Positions 579 through 26,656 of a stretch of 64,000 nt of DNA are shown here, one piece after another. Position 1 is the stretch's first letter, and the number at the start of each line of letters is the position of its first letter. The stretch is from a virus. The stretch spans positions 32,001-96,000 of IMG/VR virus record IMGVR_UViG_3300005758_000132. One strand, written 5' to 3'. The position numbers were made by a program, and so were the translations under genes. The notes below the pieces were generated by a model, which worked only from the letters and a program-made list of their open reading frames with translations, searched no databases and was not told the DNA's origin.

Positions 579-3068
579 TTAGATGGTGATCACAGCCGCG
601 CTGCTTACAGAGGCGGGCTCAAGGATCAAGAAGTTGTTGGGAACCACAACGTTGTACTCGTAACCGATGCGAGTAGCGTCGCCAGCGGCAGACGTCTCCG
701 CGTACGCAGAGTTCTCGACGTAGCGCGCAATAATCTTGGACCTAGCCTGATAACGCAGGCGGTCAACAGCTAGTCCAAGCAGACCTCTAGGATCTACGTC
801 CACGTTCGCTGTACCGATGACGCCGGTCATGTACGCGCGAAGATCGCGAATCGACCAGTACGCGGACTCGTTAGCAGAGACCTCAATCTGATTGATATCG
901 TCGCTGGCGCGATATGTAGTGATCGAGCGCGTCACCTTGAAGCCAAGGTTATCACGGCTGTATGTGACAACGCCTGCGTCAAGCAGCGCGTCAGCGTCGA
1001 TAGTTCCATCCCATGCGGCGTTAGAGCGCACATCCAACACGCGCGGCCGCTTGAAGGTGAGCGGAGCGCCGATACGAACGCAGCACTGCATCGCGGCTAG
1101 CTGAAGAGCTTGCCACATGGGCGAGAGCCACCGACGGTTGCCGTTACGATCAAGAACACGGATTTCCTGCGCCGCGAAAGCGATGTGGCGCGAGTTGTAC
1201 GCGACGGTCAGCGTATTGAGTTGATCAATAGTCTGATCCGCTTCAGCGCCCGCCCAAACGTTGCACTCGCGAGCACCTGCGCCTGCCATGTAGGCAGCGT
1301 GCGTGTGCGCGTCCTGGATAATCGTAGCGTCCTGCGAAAGCACAGCGAGAACAGATGTCTCGGTAAGACGTAGCGCCTCGAAACACGCGTCACGCGACAG
1401 TGAGGTTGTGGTTCCGGTCGTGCCGCCTCCGAGTGGAGTGCTGCTAAGCGCGTCAACGCGAAGATTCGCAAGCTCCGTCCAGCGATAAGCGTGATCACCA
1501 ATGGCGCTATACGGCATCGCAGTGGCCAGCACAGCTGCTTTCACCACGTCACCTGTTGCGAGCGTACCCGAGCCGCGCAGCAATGTGCATCCCGTGAACG
1601 ACGTAGCAGTCTTGCCAGTGTAGCTAACGTAAGCCGTGCCGCCGGAAAGCTCGATCGAAATAACGCCTGCGCTGGGCGCCCCAGTGGTGGACACTACGTC
1701 AATCGTCGATTGCGGAAGGATATCGCCGTTTGAGCCAACCGCCACCGTTGTCGCAAAGACGCTTTCTACGAGCTTGAAAAGAGCAATGCCGCCAGCATCG
1801 CCGCCGAGCGAGGTGGTGCTCAAGTCATTAACACCCAACGCAATCACGGTGCCCGCGGCTACGCCTGTGTAGTTGCCAAGCGCCAGACCGGTTGTGCCTG
1901 TCACGGCAGCGTATTCAGTATCGAGATCCCAATTAGGTTGCGTCGTACCCTCGACAAGCTCGGCTGAAACGTAAATAGACTCAGCGTTTACGCGACGCGC
2001 GAACTCGAAATTATCGCAACGGAGATTGATGGCGCCAACGGTCAAGTCGCTGGATTCCAAGATATCTAGCGCACCGAGTTCAAGCGACGGTGCGCGCGCG
2101 TTGAGCACCGTTGCGCTGACGTCCACGAAAGCGTTGATGACGTCAGCAACGCGCTTGAGCGTTGTTACGCCGTTTGCGCGATTCATCCGGACCTTGGTCC
2201 AAGATGCCGCGATGGTACCCGCGTAAGCGCCTACAGTGATCGAATCGACGCGGCTATACGCGTACGCCGTGGGCTTCGCCTCCACCTGTCCAATCGTGAA
2301 CGCCACCGTCTCAGTATGAGCAACGCCAGTGTCTGCGCGAATGCCTGTGACAGACACGTTAACTGTACCCACCGTCGCAACCGACGGGGTTAGCAAAACC
2401 TTAGACGCACACGCACGTCCGTCAGTGGCGATGGCTTCAGTAGCTCCTCCGGCCAGATTCTTCAGGACCGTGATTTGAACTTCGCCAACAGTCTTCTCGA
2501 CGAGGTCATCATAGTACGGCACAGCAGAGAGGAAGACGCCGTCAAAGTAAGCTCCGTCATACGAGACGCTCACGACCGGACCGCTTCCAAGATTTAGCAG
2601 CTGCTCAGTAGCGCCACTCTTGGTGACGGTAAGATCAAGTCGAAGCGGAGTCGCAGACGGCGTGAGCGTGACAGACAGCTGATTTCCGGTTTGTCCAGAC
2701 ACGCGTGAAGACAAGGTTGCGACCTGCTTGCCGTTCTCGTCATCCAGGCCAAGAGACGCAGCCGTCGAAGCCAGCGTGGAAGCTAAGAGGACCGTCTGCG
2801 GAGGACGCGTAATTCGAGCGTCAGCCGCTGGGTTGAACGCGATGTCAGCGATGAGCTGCGCCTCGTCAAAATCGCCGTAGGTGCTGAGAAGACGGCGCGA
2901 GCTAGTAAACTCTGCGACCTTGCCGTTCTCAAGCCATTCAAACTCGCCTACGATCGCAAGGACCTTATCGAGATTGCTCACCCCGCCCTGCGGGGTCTGG
3001 CGCGGGTCAGCGTAAACTCCGGGAACGCCGGTGGTGAAGCCGTTGTTGGTGATGATCTTCGTAGCCAT
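579..3068 (-). CDS. tail sheath protein
   Basis: 829 aa; N-terminal PGVY motif; C-terminal sheath-like segment (LTFK...LLDAGV...RSITTY...EVS); AGGAG RBS. Confidence 0.9.
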   Translation of the reverse strand: MATKIITNNGFTTGVPGVYADPRQTPQGGVSNLDKVLAIVGEFEWLENGKVAEFTSSRRLLSTYGDFDEAQLIADIAFNPAADARITRPPQTVLLASTLASTAASLGLDDENGKQVATLSSRVSGQTGNQLSVTLTPSATPLRLDLTVTKSGATEQLLNLGSGPVVSVSYDGAYFDGVFLSAVPYYDDLVEKTVGEVQITVLKNLAGGATEAIATDGRACASKVLLTPSVATVGTVNVSVTGIRADTGVAHTETVAFTIGQVEAKPTAYAYSRVDSITVGAYAGTIAASWTKVRMNRANGVTTLKRVADVINAFVDVSATVLNARAPSLELGALDILESSDLTVGAINLRCDNFEFARRVNAESIYVSAELVEGTTQPNWDLDTEYAAVTGTTGLALGNYTGVAAGTVIALGVNDLSTTSLGGDAGGIALFKLVESVFATTVAVGSNGDILPQSTIDVVSTTGAPSAGVISIELSGGTAYVSYTGKTATSFTGCTLLRGSGTLATGDVVKAAVLATAMPYSAIGDHAYRWTELANLRVDALSSTPLGGGTTGTTTSLSRDACFEALRLTETSVLAVLSQDATIIQDAHTHAAYMAGAGARECNVWAGAEADQTIDQLNTLTVAYNSRHIAFAAQEIRVLDRNGNRRWLSPMWQALQLAAMQCCVRIGAPLTFKRPRVLDVRSNAAWDGTIDADALLDAGVVTYSRDNLGFKVTRSITTYRASDDINQIEVSANESAYWSIRDLRAYMTGVIGTANVDVDPRGLLGLAVDRLRYQARSKIIARYVENSAYAETSAAGDATRIGYEYNVVVPNNFLILEPASVSSAAVITI

Positions 3069-8530: not shown

Positions 8531-10867
8531 TTATCGCGAGGTCCTAACGCGCTCGCTGCGATATTGCGATTTCTCTCTACCCAGTTTGGTAGCTAGCGTT
8601 TTGAAATACTTTAACAAAGTTTGATCGTCGTCGAATTTAGCAGCCTCCACAACAGCCTTTTCGTCCCAGTTGACGTCAACGCCAGTCGCTTCTTTGATAG
8701 CGTCGTTAACGTCAGAAGGTTTCATCTGACGTTTTTTATACACCTCCTTGTGTAGTCCAAGGATGCGATTATGCAAAGAGTTCATTTCTCTCGCATCGTC
8801 TGGGTCTTCGTTTTCGCTCAACCTATTGTATCTATTCTGCAAATAAGCCATCTCCATTTTCTTAGCTACATTTTCAAAGTGATTCAATAAGGCGGTGTCT
8901 GACGAAGACGCCACGGCCCAGACGACGTCTTCTTCCTTCCAGTTCATGTCTTTCCCGGTCCATTCCTTGACGACGTCGTTAATCAAGCTGTCGTTTGTAT
9001 GTAAGTTATCCATAGCTTGTGCGTGGCCTGGATCGTTCTCGTTCTTCCCTTCGTGGCTCTTTACTCCATGTCCGGGATACCAGGTCTGATACTTGTTTCC
9101 AACGCGCTTGTGAAAGCCGCCCTTTTTGCTTCCTGGGATAGGGGTGAATCCTTTAGGAGGCTTGTCTGCCTTATGAAGAGCGTCGTCAGTCTCTGATAGA
9201 AGGTTGTTGTAGTTGGACTTCTCAATACGATCAGCCCAGAGATTGAGTTCACGAGCGTAGTCTTTCACGGTCAATTCTCCTCTTTCTAACGTGTCGTTGT
9301 TTGTAACGCGAGAAGCCCCCTTTTTGACTTCGTCAACTTCTTCATAGGCCCCGCTTTCGAAGAAGTGAGGATAATACTCCTGAGCGTACTCTTCATCAGT
9401 GTCGCCTTCATGTCCGTCATAGCCAGAATCGCTCTCAGATGACGCGAGCTTGAGCGCGTCCTCCAAAAGCTCTCGACCCTTTGCGGTCATATTGCGAAGC
9501 GGATGCAGCGAGCCTTTCTTGCCCTTAAAGAGCGCGTTGATCTCGTTGTCGGTAGCGCCTGACCGCTTCATCCACGTCACGAAAAGCGACGGGTGTACAT
9601 AGGAGCCGCGGCTCATAGTCATACCGTTATCAAGTCTCTCCGCGACTCGCGCAGAAACCATATCGATTACGGCAGACAGCGCTTTTATGTCTTTCTTCGC
9701 GTTACCCGTCAACTTGATTGGAGGCACTTGCGCCAGCTCGTCCGCAGCAGTCATTGAGCCTTGCAGCGTTCGCAAGTCCTTCTGCTTGAACTTACCAAAG
9801 TGCGTCTTCATGACCTTATTGGTGTCCGCGTCAGTTGCCGAGAACAGGAAGCCATCAGGTGTCGGATTTTTCGCGCGGTCGTGTAACTCTTTTACCAGCT
9901 CTGGGTCGGTCACAACACGCGTGTTCTTTTTATTTGCTTTGCCGATAAACTGTATGCGCACCGACGTCGGCGCAGTATCGTTGTCAAAGCTGAGATGTTT
10001 TGGCTTGAGCGTAGTTGCGCCTGTGGTGCCGATTTTCTCTCGTCCAAACTTGTCGACCTTGGTAGCGCGCGCTGCGGCTTCACGACTTCCAGGTCGAAGT
10101 CCAGTCTCTTCGATTAGCGCAAGAGCTACAGCCGCGTCTCGCTCGCGCTGCGATCCGGTAGTCATCGCCTTACGTAGAGAGCGCGTCGCGGCCTCCATTT
10201 GAGGAACGAGGGTGGCCAGACGAGTCCACTTCACGTGTGCAGTGCGACGGTCATGCTCAGTTGTATAGGCGAACTGGCGCACACCATCCTCGTTCGTCCA
10301 GCTTAGCACCGCTCCCTGATGGACAGCGTCAGTGCCAAGCTGACTAGGTGTAAAGTGTTCTTTGAGATTCTTAGCGGTGAGTGGGATAGGACGATTGAGT
10401 TTCATCGCGCTGTATTTTTTTCGAATATCAGCGTGCGGGTCTTCAGGCGCCTCAATCGGATTTCCTTCCTCGTCGAGCTTCGGCTTTTTCGGTTTATCTG
10501 ACGCCTTCTTATCCTTCTCAAAACGCCGAACGTCAGTGTTCTGCATTTGATCGAGAAATTTACGGTGCCGCTCGCCGATCGATTCGTAAGCCTTTTGGTG
10601 CTGCGCGTCGCTTAGCTTCTCTTTCTTGTGCGTACCAACACCGACGCCGGGGTACCAGCTCTGCCAACCGTCAGCAGTCTTCTTATGCCAACCTCCATGC
10701 TTTGTCCCTGGAATAGGTGTGAAGCCTGGCGGCGGGTGCTGCTTACTACCGACGTTGCCGGCAACTCGCGGTTCAAGATCAGCGCTACCTGACTCAGAGT
10801 CTGACGTAGACTCCTTAGCAGTTCTTCGGGCCTTAGAAATATCGCTGTCGTTGTCGTTGTTCAGCAT
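8531..10867 (-). CDS. doubly tagged polyprotein containing DNA topoisomerase IB
   Basis: TopIB motifs GLRPGS, FIGK, KDLRT, LDN, SYVHP; tags at 10649-10738 and 9074-9163; in-frame internal GTG at 9268 with AGAGGAG RBS. Confidence 0.85.
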   Translation of the reverse strand: MLNNDNDSDISKARRTAKESTSDSESGSADLEPRVAGNVGSKQHPPPGFTPIPGTKHGGWHKKTADGWQSWYPGVGVGTHKKEKLSDAQHQKAYESIGERHRKFLDQMQNTDVRRFEKDKKASDKPKKPKLDEEGNPIEAPEDPHADIRKKYSAMKLNRPIPLTAKNLKEHFTPSQLGTDAVHQGAVLSWTNEDGVRQFAYTTEHDRRTAHVKWTRLATLVPQMEAATRSLRKAMTTGSQRERDAAVALALIEETGLRPGSREAAARATKVDKFGREKIGTTGATTLKPKHLSFDNDTAPTSVRIQFIGKANKKNTRVVTDPELVKELHDRAKNPTPDGFLFSATDADTNKVMKTHFGKFKQKDLRTLQGSMTAADELAQVPPIKLTGNAKKDIKALSAVIDMVSARVAERLDNGMTMSRGSYVHPSLFVTWMKRSGATDNEINALFKGKKGSLHPLRNMTAKGRELLEDALKLASSESDSGYDGHEGDTDEEYAQEYYPHFFESGAYEEVDEVKKGASRVTNNDTLERGELTVKDYARELNLWADRIEKSNYNNLLSETDDALHKADKPPKGFTPIPGSKKGGFHKRVGNKYQTWYPGHGVKSHEGKNENDPGHAQAMDNLHTNDSLINDVVKEWTGKDMNWKEEDVVWAVASSSDTALLNHFENVAKKMEMAYLQNRYNRLSENEDPDDAREMNSLHNRILGLHKEVYKKRQMKPSDVNDAIKEATGVDVNWDEKAVVEAAKFDDDQTLLKYFKTLATKLGREKSQYRSERVRTSR
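9074..9267 (-). repeat. dispersed DNA repeat (leader plus tag) matching 6520-6695
   Basis: 9205-9267 vs 6633-6695: 60/63 nt identical; 9074-9163 vs 6520-6609: about 82/90 identical (counted by eye). Confidence 0.9.
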
Positions 10868-10902
10868 TGCAGATCCTTGAACGCGCGTTGTGACGATAAG
10901 GC

Positions 10903-10948
10903 GCTATCTACGACAGGTCGGTTTCATGTCCGCGCTGCCGTAGATAGC
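10903..10948 (-). other. intergenic RNA stem-loop
   Basis: on the - strand, GCTATCTACGGCAG ... CTGTCGTAGATAGC forms a 14-bp stem with one G-U pair. Confidence 0.55.
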
Positions 10949-10960
10949 TTTTGACGTAAA

Positions 10961-12703
10961 TTAGTTTTGTCGAACCTTAACAACAATACTTTGACCCTTG
11001 GTCACGCGCTCAGCCCATTCGAAAAGATCACCCGTATTCGCGCCCTTCTTCACCTTCGTTTGCGCCTTTTTGCTAGCCGCTATGACTTTAGCAAGCCATG
11101 GGCTTTTTTTCGCAGCGTTATACACGTCTGGAGACACAGCTCCAGTGCTCGAAGTTATTAAACCTAGAACTGCTTCGGCAGCTTTACTGGGATCGTTGTC
11201 ATGAGTAAACTTCATTTCGTTTTTGAAGTCTTTCCAAAACGTTTTTGCCTCATCGGTATCGCTACTCGAAGGGCCATCTGATAGCGCTGCGGTAAGAGCG
11301 CTGTTGCTTTCATTGCTTTTAGACGTGGTTGTCTTCGTAGACGCAGCCGTTTGCGCTGCCTGCGACGCGCGTTCAGCTCGCGCAGCGTGAACGGCCTTGG
11401 CGCGCTGAGAGCGGGCGTGAGTATCGCGGTAGCCTTCGAGCATCGCGGCAGCGGCCTTGCGAGTCATCTTGACTGAGTGACCTGTCTCAGTATGGCGGAG
11501 CGTCACGTGTCCTTTGGTAGCCTTGTCGACGTGCCAGTGACCTTCCTTGCCGTTATGGCGTCCGCGGATACGCGCGCCTTCGCTGAAATGGCTCTCGTGC
11601 GCGAAGGCCTTACGCTTAGGCATGGAGTAAATATAGCGCCAAGGACGCTTGGGATTTCCAGTCGCAATACGGCTCAGGTATTTGCGCGTGCCAGCCTTCT
11701 CAAGCGCGTCTCCTGCGTTTGCAGCTGACGCTTCGACCTTAGCGTTCGCACGCCACTGACGGCAGGACCAATACCGCGCGGTGAGGACGTCGTCCGCGGT
11801 GTCGCACTTGTGGCGTGCGTTGAAGCTCGCGCGACGCGCGGGGTTGTCACGGCGGATCTCCATATTCGCGTCGCCAAACCGTACGACGCGGACATCGCCG
11901 TCGTCGTTCTGAGCGTACACGACAAACTTCTTGACTCCGAAACCCGGCTCTCCCTCGCGGATGCGGCGCGGGCTATTGTATTCGGAAGGAACGCCGACAG
12001 CGGCACCCTTGTAGAGCGATTTTCCGAGTGACTTGTTCTTGGCGTCTGCGAGGAGCTTTTCCGCCTTGGCGCGGATGTCGTCCTTCGCGCTCTCTGGGAT
12101 GTTGGTCATCGCTAGGCGAGCAAGCGCGTTGCGCAGGTGTGGCAGGTCAACGTCGCCGCGCTCGTTGCGATACGGCAGATGACGAAGCGTGCGCGGAACG
12201 GTCTTGCCTTCCTCGTCCTTGGCACCGCGGTTTTCTACGTAGAAAAACGCGGAGTCTGGCAGGTTGTTGACGCGCGCCGTAGACCACTCAGCCTTCTCGA
12301 TGATGGCGCCCTTCACGGTGGCCATCTCGCCGTGGCAGTACGGGCAAGAAGGATCGTTGCCGTCACAGCAGCTGCACGCGTAGCACTCGTCAACGTACTC
12401 GTCTTCCTCGCCATCCTCAAAGAGCGAGTCGAGCAGCGCGTCAGCGTTATCCTCGCTGAGCCTATGACCCACGATGAGCAGAGCACGCGCGCCCGCGAGC
12501 GGCAGCTTGCCCGCGTAAACGTCAGTCAGCACCTTGCGCAGCTCCTCAAGGTGCTCCGCATCAGCCTCTTCCTCTTCCTCGTCAAGCGCTAGCTCGCTCT
12601 CGTACTCGTCATTATCGGCGTCATCAGTATCGATGTCCAACGTGTAGTCATCGAAGGAAAACGGATTTGCGTAATCTTCATCGTAGCCCATGGTGTACCT
12701 CAC
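10961..12703 (-). CDS. multidomain capsid-associated polyprotein
   Basis: acidic N-terminus; Cys cluster; LPDSAF...HLRNALAR module; KKFVV..RFGD..ARHKC..YWSC module; KY..R..WRYIY motif; C-terminal GP..FW..WLA repeat; modules separated by xK-[AGS] sites. Confidence 0.75.
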   Translation of the reverse strand: MRYTMGYDEDYANPFSFDDYTLDIDTDDADNDEYESELALDEEEEEADAEHLEELRKVLTDVYAGKLPLAGARALLIVGHRLSEDNADALLDSLFEDGEEDEYVDECYACSCCDGNDPSCPYCHGEMATVKGAIIEKAEWSTARVNNLPDSAFFYVENRGAKDEEGKTVPRTLRHLPYRNERGDVDLPHLRNALARLAMTNIPESAKDDIRAKAEKLLADAKNKSLGKSLYKGAAVGVPSEYNSPRRIREGEPGFGVKKFVVYAQNDDGDVRVVRFGDANMEIRRDNPARRASFNARHKCDTADDVLTARYWSCRQWRANAKVEASAANAGDALEKAGTRKYLSRIATGNPKRPWRYIYSMPKRKAFAHESHFSEGARIRGRHNGKEGHWHVDKATKGHVTLRHTETGHSVKMTRKAAAAMLEGYRDTHARSQRAKAVHAARAERASQAAQTAASTKTTTSKSNESNSALTAALSDGPSSSDTDEAKTFWKDFKNEMKFTHDNDPSKAAEAVLGLITSSTGAVSPDVYNAAKKSPWLAKVIAASKKAQTKVKKGANTGDLFEWAERVTKGQSIVVKVRQN

Positions 12704-15236: not shown

Positions 15237-16736
15237 TTAGGCGGCCTTGGTGGCGCAGTTATCGATGATGGCCCACTTCTGCGGCTGCTTAAAGAAGAGC
15301 GCGCCCATCATGTAAATCATGAACGGGATGCTCGCAGAGGTCTGGCCGAGCGGACGGCGGATGGCCTCCATGAGCTGCGAGAAGTAGAGCACCTCAGACG
15401 AGAACTCGCCGATGTAAATCGGCTTGCGGAACGGACGGCGATGGTTGAGGTCGGTCCACGAGGTGTTCGAGACACCGGCGGTGCCGCGAGCAAACTGACC
15501 GATGTAGTCGAACTCGGTGCCGTCCTTCTCAGTACGGTAGACGCGCCAGTAACGGAGCATACCGCTCGTGTTCTTGGTGCCGGAGATGGCTGAGTCATTG
15601 AACACGAAGGTCGGCGCGTCGCCAGCCGCGGTGATGACAACGCCGTTGACGCTGATAGCGCCAGCGGTACCGCGATCACCGACCGCCACGAAGCGGTAGT
15701 CATACTCGCCGACATCGCCAGCGCGGAAGCGGCTGCCAGTAACAGTCGAGTTGACGGTGGGGGTGCCGGACACTGCGCCCACGTTGGGAGCGCCGCCGCC
15801 AACGGAGGTCGTCGGGAAGTTCGACGGCATCGAGATGAGCGGCATGGTGTACACCGGCGCGTCGCCGTACTCGGTGGTGAGCGCAAGCTCCTGCGGGCCG
15901 CCGATGTAGGACTTGACAGCTGCGCCGCCACGATCCTTGGGATAACGGCCAGCAGCGGCGTCGAGCGTCGTGAGGACGCGCTTGACGCGCGAGTCAGTGA
16001 ACGCCTCAAGGTCGAGGGCGAAGCGTCCGTCAGACTGAAGCTCGCCGACAACGTCCTCGATATCCTCAGAGGTAGGAGCCTCGCCTTCAAGGTCGACAAC
16101 GAGACCGCCGCCACCCATGATGGACGAGCGGAAGCCGTTGAACTGGAGCGCCGAAACGCTCGCGTCACCCTCGATAAGCCAGCGCTCGATACGACCGAGG
16201 AGCTGCTTGACGCCGAGCTTGGTGCGGGTTTCAAGGAGCGAAGCGCCGCCGTCGAGACCGCCGGAGAGCACGGCCGCGGTGTCGGGGACTTCGATATTCT
16301 CCGACATGAACTTGAGCTGCACAACGATGCGCTCGAACTCAGCCTCGGAGAAACCATTGATGCCACCTTCCGCGAAGAAGGGGTCAATCGCGTCGCTGCC
16401 CTTGGCCTTCACAAGGGTAGCCTCGTGAATAAGCGACTTGGCAACCGAGACCTTCTCAAGACGGCGCCAGAGCCAGAGGTGACGCTCGCGGAAGCCAACG
16501 TCATTCAGCGTGCCCTGAATGGACTGAGTCTGAAGGGGTCCCATCGAGGCAGTGCCACCGGCGCCGCCAACGTACGAGGGGTCAGGCGGGTAAGCCGCAG
16601 TCTCCGCCTTGTGGAGCGCGTCACGCTCGTACTCGGAGATCATATTGGCAACGCGGCTAAGCATTCCGTCGTTAACACCGGCTCCGGGATTAAATCCGCC
16701 AGCCGTCATCGAGATATTGATACCCATGTTAATCAC
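15237..16736 (-). CDS. major capsid protein
   Basis: 499 aa after protease and scaffold; strong GC3 codon bias; LQTQSIQGTL and FFAEGG segments; candidate maturation site LHK-AE; followed by a terminator. Confidence 0.85.
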   Translation of the reverse strand: MINMGINISMTAGGFNPGAGVNDGMLSRVANMISEYERDALHKAETAAYPPDPSYVGGAGGTASMGPLQTQSIQGTLNDVGFRERHLWLWRRLEKVSVAKSLIHEATLVKAKGSDAIDPFFAEGGINGFSEAEFERIVVQLKFMSENIEVPDTAAVLSGGLDGGASLLETRTKLGVKQLLGRIERWLIEGDASVSALQFNGFRSSIMGGGGLVVDLEGEAPTSEDIEDVVGELQSDGRFALDLEAFTDSRVKRVLTTLDAAAGRYPKDRGGAAVKSYIGGPQELALTTEYGDAPVYTMPLISMPSNFPTTSVGGGAPNVGAVSGTPTVNSTVTGSRFRAGDVGEYDYRFVAVGDRGTAGAISVNGVVITAAGDAPTFVFNDSAISGTKNTSGMLRYWRVYRTEKDGTEFDYIGQFARGTAGVSNTSWTDLNHRRPFRKPIYIGEFSSEVLYFSQLMEAIRRPLGQTSASIPFMIYMMGALFFKQPQKWAIIDNCATKAA

Positions 16737-16768: not shown

Positions 16769-17479
16769 TCAGACAGTCACGTTGATGTCAAAGCGCTTGA
16801 GAATTTCTTCGACCGGAAGCGCAGAGTTTTCCAGCGTCGAAACAGCTTCGCCGATACGGACGATGACGTCCTCGCTGCCGCCGCCCTTCATCAGGCGGCT
16901 CTGCTCAGCGACGAGCGCCTTCTGAAGCGCGCTACGATTAACGGTCGGGGCCTGCGCAGCCGCGGCGGACTTGACGAGACTCTGCTCAGCCAGATCGTTC
17001 GGATGCGGCTTAGCAGCCGAAACAGAGCCGCGCGGAGCGCCGGTCGTAACGAGCTTGGCGTCAAGCGACTTCTTGATCTCATCGATCGAGTTGCTCAGCG
17101 AAGCAACATAATCAACGAGCTGCTCGACGAGCTTACCTTGCGCGAGCGAGCCCTTAACGAGCGCCGGCATGGTCTCATTGGTAAAGGAAACAAGCGACTC
17201 GACATTGAGCGCGGTGCCGCGAAGCATATCGCTCGTGTCTTCCGCCAGCGCGGGGCCACCCTTATGGATAGCCAGGCTGGTGTTGACGTCAATAACCTCG
17301 ACGTCAGCAGCCAGGCGCAGGTCGCTTACGGCGTTGACAAGGTCATCGATGGAGAGGCTGACAAGCCCTTCCTCAGCCACATTACCAGCGGCGACTTCAG
17401 ACTTGACGAGGCGATCGACGGTCGCGGCGTCGAGCCCACTTGCCTTAAGCTGCGCACGCAGCGTCTTCTCGGTCATCAT
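16769..17479 (-). CDS. putative scaffolding protein
   Basis: helical protein between protease and MCP with seven [LIV]xK-[ASG] sites. Confidence 0.7.
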   Translation of the reverse strand: MMTEKTLRAQLKASGLDAATVDRLVKSEVAAGNVAEEGLVSLSIDDLVNAVSDLRLAADVEVIDVNTSLAIHKGGPALAEDTSDMLRGTALNVESLVSFTNETMPALVKGSLAQGKLVEQLVDYVASLSNSIDEIKKSLDAKLVTTGAPRGSVSAAKPHPNDLAEQSLVKSAAAAQAPTVNRSALQKALVAEQSRLMKGGGSEDVIVRIGEAVSTLENSALPVEEILKRFDINVTV

Positions 17480-17503: not shown

Positions 17504-18343
17504 TCAGCCCGCCACAACGCGGGTCATAATCTGAGAGAGGCACTGCTTCCAGGCAGCGCTACCCTTCAGAGCAGCAGCGACCGCCAGGTCAAGCTCGTTA
17601 AGGTTAAGCCTAACAGCGAGTGCCGTGAGGCGCTGGAGCGGATCAACTTCCACTCCGTTGGCGGTTGCATAATGGGCGGCGTCCGGAAGGAGGGCCGATA
17701 GCCCGTCATCCAGCACCTCAGATTCATTCATGGCTTTACGAAGCATGGCTCGTCCTTCTGGGGTTGCGCGTAAAGACGCGAGGATCGGATCGAACCAAGC
17801 GTCGCGGTTTCTAGGTGCGCCTGTGATAACGACATTGGCGCAGTACCAGCGCTTTACGTCGCGGCGGTCATTCTTGTCACGCTCTTGTGCAGCGCCCTCG
17901 ACAGAATATCCAAGCCTGACGCGGTTAGACGCGCGGTTAATCCTCAGGATCTTTTCCCAGAGCTGCTTGGCAACCGGCTCGTCGTTAATCCAAAGACGGG
18001 TGGTGAGGTAATAGCAGGGAACACCGTCACGGGTCTCGCCCCGCTCAAGGTCCACCGGCTCGCCCACCGGATTAAAGACGCCCGCCGGATGCTCCATAGT
18101 GACGGCGCCAGAGTCGGCAGCAGTCATTTCACCTTTGGCCAGCGAACCCAAAAACGGCGAAAAATCCGCGCCGTCAACGCGTAAAATCTCGCCCTGCATG
18201 TCACGTCGCTCTGACGTACAAATGCCGCGGATGAGCCCCTGCTCGCCGCCCTTGGTGATAGGCTCGATTCCTGGTGTCCAAGTCGAGATTCTTTCGCGCG
18301 CGTTCATGCTGTCACCGTTGTACTTATTTAGCGACAAAGTCAA
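17504..18343 (-). CDS. prohead maturation protease
   Basis: IRGICTSERRDMQGE, MEH, GYSVEG and VVITGAPRN motifs of HK97/U35-type serine proteases; true start may be ATG 18307. Confidence 0.85.
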   Translation of the reverse strand: MTLSLNKYNGDSMNARERISTWTPGIEPITKGGEQGLIRGICTSERRDMQGEILRVDGADFSPFLGSLAKGEMTAADSGAVTMEHPAGVFNPVGEPVDLERGETRDGVPCYYLTTRLWINDEPVAKQLWEKILRINRASNRVRLGYSVEGAAQERDKNDRRDVKRWYCANVVITGAPRNRDAWFDPILASLRATPEGRAMLRKAMNESEVLDDGLSALLPDAAHYATANGVEVDPLQRLTALAVRLNLNELDLAVAAALKGSAAWKQCLSQIMTRVVAG

Positions 18344-19138: not shown

Positions 19139-19660
19139 TCAGTACGCTCGCATCTTCTTGCCCTTCATGACGTGATCGTGCATCGAGTCCATCGCGGCGC
19201 CGATCGTCCCATGAGCCTCAGGCATGAGCTCCTTACCACCTACAGAAGGCGTGTGCACCCATCCGCCACCCTTAGCGGCCTTCGAGAGCATCTCTGTCCG
19301 CAGGTTGCTAAAATTACGCATCGCCACGCTGCCGTTGGCAGGCTCAACCACACCGGAGAAACGGCTCCAGCGCTCGTTCGGCACCTGGTTGTTATCAGAC
19401 GTGAGCGTGTAGAAATCCTTGTATCGGCTGAGCTCGTTGATGCCGAAATCGGGGTACCACGTAAGGTAGGACTCGCTATTGAGGTCACCCTTGTAGCAAC
19501 CGCCCTTCATGCTGCCCTCAAGCGGCTCGAAGCCTTCAGGAGGCATCTTGCTCTTATCAGCGGGCTCAAGGTCCTGAGTCTGCAACGCTTGCAGCGTATT
19601 GGGCTCGAATCCGTTAACCCCGCCCCAACCCATACTAATCGCGTTCATGTTTGTGTTCAT
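19139..19660 (-). CDS. small protein with a divergent PPxG..WYP tag
   Basis: start reassigned to ATG 19660 (or 19648); tag MPPEGFEPLEGSMKGG...TWYP at 19451-19546. Confidence 0.7.
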   Translation of the reverse strand: MNTNMNAISMGWGGVNGFEPNTLQALQTQDLEPADKSKMPPEGFEPLEGSMKGGCYKGDLNSESYLTWYPDFGINELSRYKDFYTLTSDNNQVPNERWSRFSGVVEPANGSVAMRNFSNLRTEMLSKAAKGGGWVHTPSVGGKELMPEAHGTIGAAMDSMHDHVMKGKKMRAY

Positions 19661-19892
19661 CGGACATCCCCTTTTCAAGGTCTCGCCGCAGTGCGTCGAG
19701 CCGTTTCTTAAACCCTTCCTCCAGCGAAGCGCGGATCTCTTCAATCGCGTGCACTTCGCCGTCGCGCGCGGACTTACCCTTGAACAGAGCGTCAGCGGCG
19801 TCAACGAAGCCTTTGTAAATTCGCGCGGCCAGCTCTGTATGAGTCATCGCGTCGAGCTCGCCCGGCGCGTCTTCTTGGATGGTTATCTTCAT
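19635..19892 (-). CDS. hypothetical helical protein
   Basis: 85 aa; ATGA coupling with the upstream gene; contains LFKG and LEKG sites. Confidence 0.6.
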   Translation of the reverse strand: MKITIQEDAPGELDAMTHTELAARIYKGFVDAADALFKGKSARDGEVHAIEEIRASLEEGFKKRLDALRRDLEKGMSDEHKHERD

Positions 19893-20128: not shown

Positions 20129-24706
<4,578 letters not shown>

Positions 24707-24721
24707 AGTACACCTCGCGTG

Positions 24722-26656
24722 TTAGACGCGCACCTGAACAACGATTGGCTCACGCTGTGAGCCGCGTGAAACGATAGACCAAGGCTTGCCCGGACGCCAC
24801 GTTGGTGGAGGCTTTACTAGGCCTCGCCTGACGGCTTCTGCCACGGGACCTGCAAGGCTCTTGGTGATCTGGTTTATCGAGCCGCCGTGCTTTGGGTCTC
24901 GATACAGCGACGCCATAAGCGAGGCGTCATCGAAATCCTCGAACGGAGCCTCAGGCTCTTCTTCCTCACCGGGCGGCATCTCTCCACCCATGCCCATATC
25001 CATACCGCCACCCTCGCCACCTTGCTGCTGGTTCATGGCGTCCATGGACTGCGCTTGCGAGATGTACGGGTTGGCGATGACGTCGCCGGCGGACCCTGGA
25101 ATAGGCTTGAGGTCGTAGCGAGCGCGGATCTCGTTCACTGACATGAACGACTCTAGCATCTTCTTGTCGATATCGAGCTTCTCGCCCTCAGTCAGCGAGT
25201 CAAAGCCGGTGAACTCGAACACGAAGGTCTCACCGTCCTTGAAGCGCGGCAGGAACTTGGAGTTGATCCAGCTCTCAATCGACCGCAGGCGCGGGCGCAA
25301 GCCACGCGCGCGGCTCATCTCATATCGCTCCGCCGGTCCGCTGCTGTTGAGCGCGGATTGGCCTTCGTTGCCGAACTGCATGTTGAGCGCAGCAACCGGG
25401 TCGACGCCATACGCAGCGCACACCAGCTTGACGTTGTAGAAAAGCCAGTTGGTGAACTCCATCTCCTTGTTGGAGTTGGAGAGGTTGACAGACTTGATGT
25501 CTTCCTTCTGCGACGGGTCGAGCTGGATGATCGGCATCCGGCGCTTAGCCGCTGCCTGCGAAAAGTTAGCGTCGAAGGTGCGGCGCATCGCAGAGAAAGC
25601 GGTGCGGTCCATCGTCGACATGATCGCGAGCAAGGACGAGGAGTGAATGCCGGAGGTGAAGTTGACCGCGTTGTAGTTTTCCGCGCGACCGAAATTGACT
25701 AGCACGTTCCAGAGCATGTGAAGCTCAGGGAATCCGTAGTCGACAAAGCGCATCCCGACACGCGGGTTGCGGATGCCGTAAATCATCTCCGGCTCGTCCC
25801 ACTCTGCCACCACGCGATTCAGAACCCACTGGACGTAGCCAGACTCGCCCCACTGCCCGCGGTCATAGTACTGCTGCGAAGGCTCGCGACGACGCACAGA
25901 CTGCGCATCGTACACGAACATTCCCATGGGCTCAGTGTTGCGGAAGCCAGAGGCCTCTAGGATCTCGATAGGCGCAGCGTCGTAAACAAGCGACTCGCGC
26001 ATGAAACGCCGAACCGTGCCTTCAAAACCTCCTGACTGATACTTACCGCCGCCACGCTCAATTACGCGCTCGATTTCGGTCATCCGCAGCTTCTCAGCCT
26101 TAGTCGGATGCCGGCTTGTGTCAGCGAGCCTCAGTCGAAAGCCAAACGTATGCGCGACCGTCTGGCGCTTGGCAAACTCGCACACCTCTGCGACAGCGTG
26201 ATTGATGACCAGTGCAGGCACTGACATCGACGCCAGCTTCTCTAACATCCACCACGGCATCCCGTCAGTGCCTGGATGCGTAGGATTGAGATTCGCGTCT
26301 GAAGTGATGCGACCTATCGCGTCAACGGGATCGAACGCGTAACCAGCGGGTCCCGGCTCCTCTTTCTTAGCCGCCTTGAAGAGCGCATCAACCGGGTCCG
26401 GTACGTCAAACGCCGGCGATGACGCCGTTGGCATAACAACCGCGCCCATATCGGGCGCACCACCGCCGAGGAACGCTCCTGGTCCTGACTTGACGATAAC
26501 CTCGTCAGGCGCGGTCTGCTCCGCGGCCGGTGTCTGCGCCGTGTCCTGAGGAGGTCTAGCAGCGTCAACAAACGCCTCAGAGGCGCGGCGGGCTAACGAC
26601 CCTGCCGCTCCCCCTAGAGACGCTGCTAAGCTGTTCAAACGGTCCATAATCGACAT
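24722..26656 (-). CDS. portal protein
   Basis: 644 aa; YGFPEL, EMEFTNWL...VCAAYGVDP, GLRPRLRSIE and SVNEIRARYDLKPI motifs of HK97/SPO1-type portals. Confidence 0.9.
   Translation of the reverse strand: MSIMDRLNSLAASLGGAAGSLARRASEAFVDAARPPQDTAQTPAAEQTAPDEVIVKSGPGAFLGGGAPDMGAVVMPTASSPAFDVPDPVDALFKAAKKEEPGPAGYAFDPVDAIGRITSDANLNPTHPGTDGMPWWMLEKLASMSVPALVINHAVAEVCEFAKRQTVAHTFGFRLRLADTSRHPTKAEKLRMTEIERVIERGGGKYQSGGFEGTVRRFMRESLVYDAAPIEILEASGFRNTEPMGMFVYDAQSVRRREPSQQYYDRGQWGESGYVQWVLNRVVAEWDEPEMIYGIRNPRVGMRFVDYGFPELHMLWNVLVNFGRAENYNAVNFTSGIHSSSLLAIMSTMDRTAFSAMRRTFDANFSQAAAKRRMPIIQLDPSQKEDIKSVNLSNSNKEMEFTNWLFYNVKLVCAAYGVDPVAALNMQFGNEGQSALNSSGPAERYEMSRARGLRPRLRSIESWINSKFLPRFKDGETFVFEFTGFDSLTEGEKLDIDKKMLESFMSVNEIRARYDLKPIPGSAGDVIANPYISQAQSMDAMNQQQGGEGGGMDMGMGGEMPPGEEEEPEAPFEDFDDASLMASLYRDPKHGGSINQITKSLAGPVAEAVRRGLVKPPPTWRPGKPWSIVSRGSQREPIVVQVRV

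Follow-up and report, generated by a model that had tools for sequence, protein, structure and literature searches.

An encapsidated topoisomerase is a textbook feature of poxviruses. The titles of papers cited in PMC12188299 indicate that the vaccinia type IB topoisomerase (TopIB) is encapsidated and that its knockout lowers early transcription. On the phage side, it has been proposed that polyvalent proteins travel inside the capsid and are then injected (Iyer, Burroughs, Anand, de Souza and Aravind 2017, PMC5512222). Here we analyzed a TopIB gene in the record IMGVR_UViG_3300005758_000132, a 109,013 bp IMG/VR virus rated complete by CheckV; the part studied, hereafter the window, is a stretch of 64,000 nucleotides. 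The gene encodes a true TopIB with an intact active site and lies in the head region of a tailed phage, and the predicted packaging of the enzyme into the virion is well supported by comparative evidence. Hence phages probably carry TopIB in the particle as poxviruses do. Virion-delivered effectors and the encapsidated poxvirus enzyme are known kinds of system, while a TopIB payload is new for phages; our literature search on TopIB in phages found no report of a virion or head-module TopIB.

The protein matches the Pfam family PF01028 over residues 212-418 with 61.6 bits (cut-off 23.7; E 9e-17), and with 64 bits in a whole-genome search. The motifs GLRPGS, FIGK, KDLRT, LDN and SYVHP, from which the original prediction had recognized the enzyme, were all found in a single open frame on the minus strand (Table 1). 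Within them, R258, K310, R366, N414 and Y423 align one-to-one with R137, K174, R239, N280 and Y289 of Deinococcus radiodurans TopIB (PDB 2f4q alignment); following the work of the Shuman laboratory, this R-K-R-N-Y pentad is the catalytic set of TopIB. An AlphaFold (AF2) model built on ten homologues has a predicted local distance difference test (pLDDT) score of 65-95 over residues 140-440, and in a Foldseek search of the PDB its best 22 matches were all TopIB (bacterial, variola and human; E ~1e-12). The alignment to variola TopIB (312-314 residues) spans 319 columns and covers both domains. The Pfam profile Top1B_N_bact has no match on the window protein itself; its N-terminal domain aligns with segments of L003, L004 and P0153 that are positive for this profile. 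No type IA and no type IIA topoisomerase was found in the 109-kb genome, in which TopIB is the sole topoisomerase. A tyrosine recombinase or protelomerase was considered as another identity and rejected, with Foldseek E values of at least 1.3e-3 for XerH and at least 0.1 for TelA, TelK and ResT versus ~1e-12 for TopIB, and no integrase Pfam match.

The active site also bears on the idea that the TopIB fold is an inactive, structural relic kept merely as a DNA-binding head protein. We regard this as very improbable, as the pentad is invariant among homologues at 43-84% identity that form a clade tagged with a short PPxGF module, and it is kept in 47 of 47 aligned viral copies: R, K, R and Y are present in every one, and at the fourth position 43 copies have N, 3 have H and 1 has D. 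The catalytic residues are likewise invariant or near-invariant in a 10-sequence alignment (A4). By these signs the protein apparently has TopIB relaxing activity.

The most telling evidence on where the enzyme goes comes from TopIB genes in other viral genomes. A scan of IMG/VR with a TopIB alignment gave 53 loci, which were compared with head proteins, their open frames measured and their domains checked against Pfam; a scan of viral contigs with a single TopIB protein as query gave no match, while the alignment-based scans did. In-frame fusions of TopIB to the portal occur in L020 (1,266 aa; Phage_portal_3 and TopIB), L036 (1,826 aa; Portal_Mu and TopIB) and L037 (4557-8846; 1,429 aa; portal, a 2H-type domain of the 2'-5' RNA ligase superfamily, and TopIB), and L064 has a portal with TopIB beginning at the contig end. 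In L004/L027 and L028, TopIB follows a DUF2213 prohead-protease domain within a fused protein. TopIB also ends large multi-enzyme proteins encoded next to MuF or terminase, namely those of L003 (4778-8575; NUDIX and C-terminal TopIB, the next gene encoding an ADP-ribosyltransferase (ART), followed by protease and capsid) and L017 (5682-8867; class-I glutamine amidotransferase (GATase) and C-terminal TopIB). About 10 more loci have a stand-alone TopIB gene between portal/MuF and protease/capsid genes, and giant-virus contigs have stand-alone TopIBs of ~330 aa. The survey of phage TopIB neighbourhoods that the original prediction had proposed as a check therefore yielded portal fusions, protease-domain fusions and head-module genes.

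The portal-TopIB fusions need at least three separate events in two portal families. Because the portal and the prohead protease are both procapsid parts and have been fused to TopIB repeatedly, the capsid interior appears to be the destination of phage TopIB; the repeated fusions are arguably the strongest available argument for such a destination, and we consider it likely that the TopIB of the window is located in the capsid. Maximum-likelihood analysis places the module-tagged TopIBs in a single clade (support 100/100) within the phage head-module group (98/87), apart from the giant-virus/bacterial-type group.

The genomic setting in the window is of the same kind. The TopIB gene lies between the capsid and tail-sheath genes on the same strand, in a region whose large genes are all on the minus strand. 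The gene order is large terminase, ParB-like protein, 1189-aa protein, portal, 1525-aa protein, 221-aa protein, MuF-like protein, prohead protease, a 236-aa scaffold candidate, major capsid protein, four small or medium proteins, a 580-aa protein, TopIB, a virion structural protein (phrog_1004), further proteins, of which three have the module, and finally the tail sheath. Portal and TopIB are encoded separately here, and no portal domain is present in the TopIB open reading frame (ORF). In the viral contig L002, whose capsid and portal proteins are 58% and 49% identical to those of the window, a TopIB homologue (57% identity) occupies the corresponding position, with the structural-protein homologue on one side and the 219-aa, 233-aa and sheath genes on the other. 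A promoter and terminator scan around the TopIB gene found signals no commoner than in shuffled sequence; with no flanking signal above chance, late-gene co-transcription is the simplest reading, and we infer that TopIB is co-transcribed with the late genes. The gene had been described as more than 40 kb away from the replication genes. This is roughly correct: SbcCD, UvsX, DNA polymerase and primase are at 52.6-62.8 kb, a distance of 42-52 kb, but an RNase H-like gene (33.1 kb) and a D5-like gene (43.9 kb) lie nearer.

The PPxGF module of the TopIB protein is similarly confined. It comprises ~30 residues with the consensus PPxG[FY]xP[IV]PGSKxGG[FWY]HK..G....WYP, and no Pfam model matches it. 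Eight copies were counted in the window, and a profile found nine in the whole genome, all at 4.9-30.2 kb of the window and in seven head/neck-region proteins, with zero copies in the remaining ~80 kb. Against 1.84 billion cluster representatives, the profile matched 287 proteins at E <= 1e-3, 79 of them at E <= 1e-10, with lengths of 100 to 3,300 aa and as many as six copies each. A Pfam scan of 39 module-bearing proteins revealed ddrB-ParB (4 members), InPase (3), LPD1, ART-PolyVal, Zeta toxin, SAM lyase, C5 methylase and SNF2/DEAD helicase domains (DarB-like helicase or methylase), and the TopIB homologue P0004 itself consists of InPase, module and TopIB. Among the other module-bearing proteins of the window, the 1525-aa protein, encoded just downstream of the portal gene, has copies starting at aa 31 and at aa 149. 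Its residues 1311-1414 match a poly(A)-polymerase/CCA-type nucleotidyltransferase head domain (Pfam E 1.4e-10), which makes it another tagged enzyme payload. The ninth copy, divergent at 31 bits, is in the 221-aa ORF between the 1525-aa protein and MuF.

The module could also be taken to mean that TopIB is made late and stays unpackaged, acting in the cytoplasm on replicating or concatemeric DNA, for example by helping terminase, with the module serving to bind DNA or a partner and not to load the protein. Its composition is basic (K/H/R-rich), and as it is predicted to remain on the mature protein, it could simply bind DNA; the genome has no other topoisomerase, and the virion location of TopIB is itself a deduction from sequence. 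Such a reading nevertheless leaves unexplained the portal and prohead-protease fusions in other lineages, the restriction of the module to the head region and the scaffold-type site before each module (below), and we think it rather improbable.

The original prediction spanned 9280-10867, which is too short: it holds the first 529 residues only, and the ORF reaches 8531. An AAGGA Shine-Dalgarno sequence lies 6 nt 5' of the ATG at 10867. Judged by comparison with its relatives, the 778-aa protein is a two-unit polyprotein, unit 1 being TopIB and unit 2 a helical payload; while the PPxG module and the ISK↓A and VKK↓G sites (arrows mark predicted cuts) are present as first described, the second tagged unit, residues 517-778 behind the VKK↓G junction, had been missed. 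Relatives of the TopIB unit (P0003, P0005, P0006 and L002) are stand-alone proteins of 450-524 aa that start with S-x-W-A/S-D/N-R/V-I/L-L-K and then S, A or G, followed by the module and TopIB. Residues 535-551 of the window protein (KDYARELNLWADRIEK↓S) are near-identical to the N-termini of a 301-aa and a 285-aa tagged protein, which argues that the 778-aa protein is a fusion of two tagged units. The Trp-containing N-terminal leader is absent from the fused forms (window and P0002) and retained in the four stand-alone forms. Two versus four is a small sample, and the leader loss fits loading of the whole polyprotein via the internal leader. By prediction, the mature TopIB would comprise residues 13-516 and the second payload would start at residue 567 (or 551), the leader helix between them being excised. 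The second payload contains two ~46-aa repeats (aa 625-671 and 715-760) with the consensus ND.[IV]K[EA][WA]TG.D[MV]NW.E..VV.A......LL..F, and searches with it gave no Pfam match, no Atlas lead and no stand-alone homologues.

The predicted cleavage sites follow the module and the head proteins. A hydrophobic-x-K-[AGS] site is found at most 30 residues upstream of 148 of 214 modules (152 proteins), compared with 8 of 209 downstream control windows, and its Lys peaks 3-7 residues before the PP of the module. Within the genome, site density per 100 aa is 0.66 in head-region proteins versus 0.31 elsewhere. The excess is strongest in the scaffold candidate (7 observed, 1.27 expected; z 5.2), followed by the 580-aa protein (z 4.2), the prohead protease (z 3.3) and the MuF-like protein (z 2.6). 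This distribution is the pattern expected of prohead-protease specificity, and it is similar to that of the common sites in T4 and SPN3US/phiKZ head proteins (PMC10052503), if with other types of residue. In the original prediction TopIB was cargo of the head module behind a PPxG tag. That it is head-module cargo has strong comparative support from synteny, the head-only module, the polyvalent-effector domains and the portal/protease fusions elsewhere; as for the tag, the arrangement of the cleavage sites points to the cleavable helical leader as the loading signal, and the PPxG module would remain on the mature enzyme.

The 580-aa neighbour has, near its C-terminus, the same VKKGA cassette as the inter-unit junction of the TopIB polyprotein (KVKK↓GANTGDLFEWAERVTK↓GQ...). 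Homologues of its middle part (aa 286-451; phrog_7595) adjoin module-bearing genes in L005 and L009, and it may be a co-loaded or adaptor protein. The 93-nt gap between its gene and the TopIB start contains an inverted repeat (ATCTACGGCA...TGTCGTAGAT) whose loop is ~20 nt long and which lacks a T-run; it may be an RNA element.

The TopIB unit ends in a conserved tail with an acidic stretch, EGDTDEEYAQEYYP; residues D491, E493, E497 and P500 are invariant in alignment A2, and the pLDDT of the tail is low. Other phages mostly have a small acidic ORF at the end of the TopIB gene: at ~25 of 29 such loci it overlaps the stop codon or directly adjoins it (for example L003 8579-8770, L014 8860-9018, L019 981-1145 and L030 8774-8947). 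At least 19 of these partner ORFs have the motif PDVHFG...DWR...DDPDDEEL...LGFDP, more fully written PDVHFG..DWR..DDPDDEEL..TPxDVxAxLGFDP. No acidic partner ORF follows TopIB in the window or in L002, where the next gene starts 13 nt past TopIB. Homology between the tail and the partner ORFs was not supported, a profile of 19 partners scoring <5 bits on tagged TopIBs; as a speculation, the tail might be an analogue of the partner ORF, that is, a restraint on the enzyme that is later removed or displaced. The N-terminal motif of the partner ORFs (L013-L040), hFGk....DWRk, resembles the TopIB strand HFGKFKxKDLRT (window aa 348-369, which holds R366), at ~2 bits, a level at which chance is possible.

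The partner ORFs and the portal fusions both bear on the main rival for the site of action, in which the packaged TopIB would act within the head, and not in the host cytoplasm, as a swivel close to or at the portal that eases torsional stress in packaging or ejection. This role is favored by the repeated in-frame portal fusions, as the far end of the portal points into the capsid, and by the cargo being in place before DNA enters; it is established that type IB enzymes need no ATP or metal, making work within the capsid possible. Yet the window enzyme is predicted to be cut free and not tethered, the other module payloads are of host-directed effector types (ART, Zeta, SAM lyase and ddrB-ParB), and an acidic partner beside most other phage TopIBs fits restraint better than constant use. 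We therefore view an in-head swivel as unlikely, while giving it more weight than any other rival.

In the mechanism that we prefer, delivery of the enzyme to the host, TopIB would be made late, together with the head proteins, as an active cofactor-independent enzyme. It would be loaded into the procapsid via a short amphipathic leader helix, and because the N-terminal leader is degenerate, the internal KDYARELNLWADRIEK helix would serve the whole polyprotein. The prohead protease would then cut at hydrophobic-x-K↓[A/G/S] sites (ISK↓A, VKK↓G, IEK↓S and LHK↓A), producing a mature TopIB of ~504 aa with the basic PPxGF module at its N-terminus and a second payload of ~212 aa. TopIB would exit the head with the DNA and provide an ATP- and metal-independent swivel on the incoming genome, the relaxation of which would ease early transcription or replication before phage genes are expressed, as with the encapsidated poxvirus enzyme. 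Taken as a whole, from late synthesis through leader loading, trimming and exit with the DNA to genome relaxation, this chain is on balance the account we lean towards. The three times of action first proposed, packaging, ejection and first transcription, are not told apart by the comparative tests.

Several observations weigh against this account. The phage is uncultured and known from its sequence only, and the module alone had no match among 50,697 cultured phage records; with no cultured phage carrying the module, there is no virion proteome to consult. The branch that leads to the tagged clade is very long (3.5 changes per site), making the exact placement of the clade unsure. The enrichment of sites in the TopIB protein itself is modest (7 observed, 3.0 expected; z 2.3), and three of the seven matches are in the folded part of the enzyme, including one at the catalytic Lys; by itself the motif is therefore not specific. 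Finally, the prohead protease had no usable match in the PDB or Pfam, and Lys-specific cleavage is thus not tied to a known enzyme.

A packaged TopIB could also act on the genome in another way, by cleaving near a genome end and staying bound via Tyr423 as a covalent end-cap or pilot that protects from exonucleases or guides entry. TopIB forms a 3'-phosphotyrosyl adduct, cleavage near an end is established to trap the vaccinia enzyme, and end-protecting proteins are a known class of phage cargo. However, CCCTT is unremarkable in the record (137 sites, 1.18x expected) and is not placed at the ends of the record, which may differ from the true genome ends, and the general acid-base residues are fully conserved, which speaks for turnover and against suicide cleavage. 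We give this role only the slightest chance.

Whole-protein tblastn and a 20-kb megablast against the same cultured phage records gave no match. Any TopIB was present in seven records of the set, namely a Bacteroides phage (a 254-aa copy among small genes), ~228-kb Xanthomonas/Erwinia phages and a 485-kb uncultured phage. Locus L011 is from Xanthomonas phage PhiXhv-15 (PV764602.1, 5104-7110). The cultured ~228-kb Xanthomonas/Erwinia phages encode a 668-aa "topoisomerase" with a TopIB-like part, and its gene precedes one with the annotation head-tail connector by 2.7 kb. These cultured phages may offer a culturable system for virion TopIB.

Table 1. Features of the TopIB locus and head region, in window coordinates (arrows, predicted cleavage).
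Feature	Position	Strand	Remarks
Tail-sheath gene	579-3068	-	
Whole TopIB ORF	8531-10867	-	778 aa; from ORF list; homologues P0002-P0006
Degenerate N-terminal leader	10829-10867	-	ends in predicted protease site ISK↓A, aa 10-13
PPxGF...WYPG module, copy 1	10646-10735	-	aa 45-74; hidden Markov model (HMM) 74.3 bits; modelled beta hairpin, pLDDT 62-84
TopIB N-terminal (beta) domain	10232-10396	-	aa 158-212
TopIB catalytic domain	9548-10231	-	aa 213-440; PF01028, 2f4q alignment, fold match
GLRPGS	10085-10102	-	aa 256-261; R258 codon 10094-10096
FIGK	9938-9949	-	aa 307-310; K310 codon 9938-9940
KDLRT	9767-9781	-	aa 363-367; R366 codon 9770-9772
LDN	9626-9634	-	aa 412-414; N414 codon 9626-9628
SYVHP	9590-9604	-	aa 422-426; Y423 codon 9599-9601
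C-terminal tail of TopIB unit	9329-9547	-	aa 441-513
VKK↓G, predicted inter-unit junction	9317-9328	-	aa 514-517; stand-alone relatives end ~10 aa earlier
Internal leader helix	9215-9265	-	aa 535-551; modelled helix, low confidence
LHK↓A site	9167-9178	-	aa 564-567; K 4 residues before module 2, the most frequent position class
PPxGF...WYPG module, copy 2	9071-9160	-	aa 570-599; HMM 83 bits
Unit 2 payload	8534-9070	-	aa 600-778; all-helical (AF2 pLDDT 51.6)
Gap with inverted repeat	10868-10960	-	
580-aa protein	10961-12703	-	
Capsid gene	15237-16736	-	
Putative scaffold	16769-17479	-	7 hydrophobic-x-K-[AGS] sites
Prohead protease, presumed processing enzyme	17504-18343	-	phrog_1028, phrog_38466
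221-aa ORF	19139-19804	-	
Module, ninth copy	19439-19549	-	
1525-aa protein	20129-24706	-	
Portal gene	24722-26656	-	

Virion-carried enzymes decide the first minutes of infection, and the window suggests a third way of placing TopIB in the head, by a cleavable leader and a conserved module, next to portal fusion and protease fusion. What would be new in this variant is the loading route, in which leader and PPxGF module bring in tagged free cargo that is not fused to a virion part. The convergence on one destination argues for a real advantage of TopIB at packaging or entry. A compact loading code, consisting of a leader helix, a hydrophobic-x-K↓small site and the PPxGF module, could explain the capsid sorting of dozens of unrelated effector enzymes. 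The small, cofactor-free TopIB can be expressed and assayed without phage culture. More broadly, tailed phages might have recruited TopIB repeatedly as a mechanical part of genome delivery, an energy-free swivel inside the head that lets out the twist arising in the DNA from motor-driven packaging and high-speed ejection, whether portal-tethered, protease-fused or tag-loaded, with the poxvirus enzyme as a parallel to or a descendant of such an ancient role in the virion; we offer this only tentatively and would not expect it to hold in full.

Among known systems, the portal-TopIB fusions (L020, L036 and L037) have the same kind of enzyme and the same inferred destination, and the tagged clade groups with the phage head-module TopIBs; unlike them, the window TopIB is free tagged cargo with no portal in frame and no separate acidic partner ORF. 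Bacterial TopIB (D. radiodurans; PDB 2f4q and 3m4a) is the best PDB match by sequence (E 2.4e-5) and by fold (E 3.5e-12) and has the same R-K-R-N-Y pentad. The phage protein differs in ~157 extra N-terminal residues (leader, module and helical spacer) and in its acidic C-terminal tail, and it is very divergent, with one match at 28% identity among short proteins and a long tree stem.

The polyvalent proteins (PMC5512222) share with phage TopIB the head-module location and modular payloads, and the module co-occurs with their ddrB-ParB, InPase, ART-PolyVal and LPD1 domains. The domains in that study do not include TopIB, the only mention of "topoisomerase" being a reference title. The phage TopIB also differs in its PPxGF module, for which there is no Pfam model, and in its predicted processing by the prohead protease and not by an in-protein zincin domain. 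Polyvalent proteins have at least two effector domains; here two tagged units are seen, the second with a payload of no recognizable function. The internal proteins of T4 and the ejection proteins of SPN3US/phiKZ (PMC10052503) carry at the N-terminus a short targeting peptide, bounded by a prohead-protease site of the type common to scaffold and capsid, and this cargo is ejected with the DNA. In the window system, which has been read from sequence alone, the predicted site is instead hydrophobic-x-Lys↓small and not x-x-Glu↓, the leader can also be internal or C-terminal and flanked by sites, and a conserved module would be left on the cargo.

The poxvirus TopIBs (vaccinia and variola; PDB 2h7g, 2h7f and 1a41) are only ~18% identical to the phage enzyme, which, like bacterial enzymes, has Asn and not His at the fourth catalytic position. 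The phage enzyme differs further in being part of a polyprotein with a leader, PPxGF module and protease sites, and in belonging to a tailed phage. Nonetheless, the two enzymes have the two-domain fold and the catalytic set in common (TM score 0.65-0.67, normalized to the variola chain), and like the poxvirus protein, the phage TopIB would be a cofactor-free relaxing enzyme carried for the first steps of infection.

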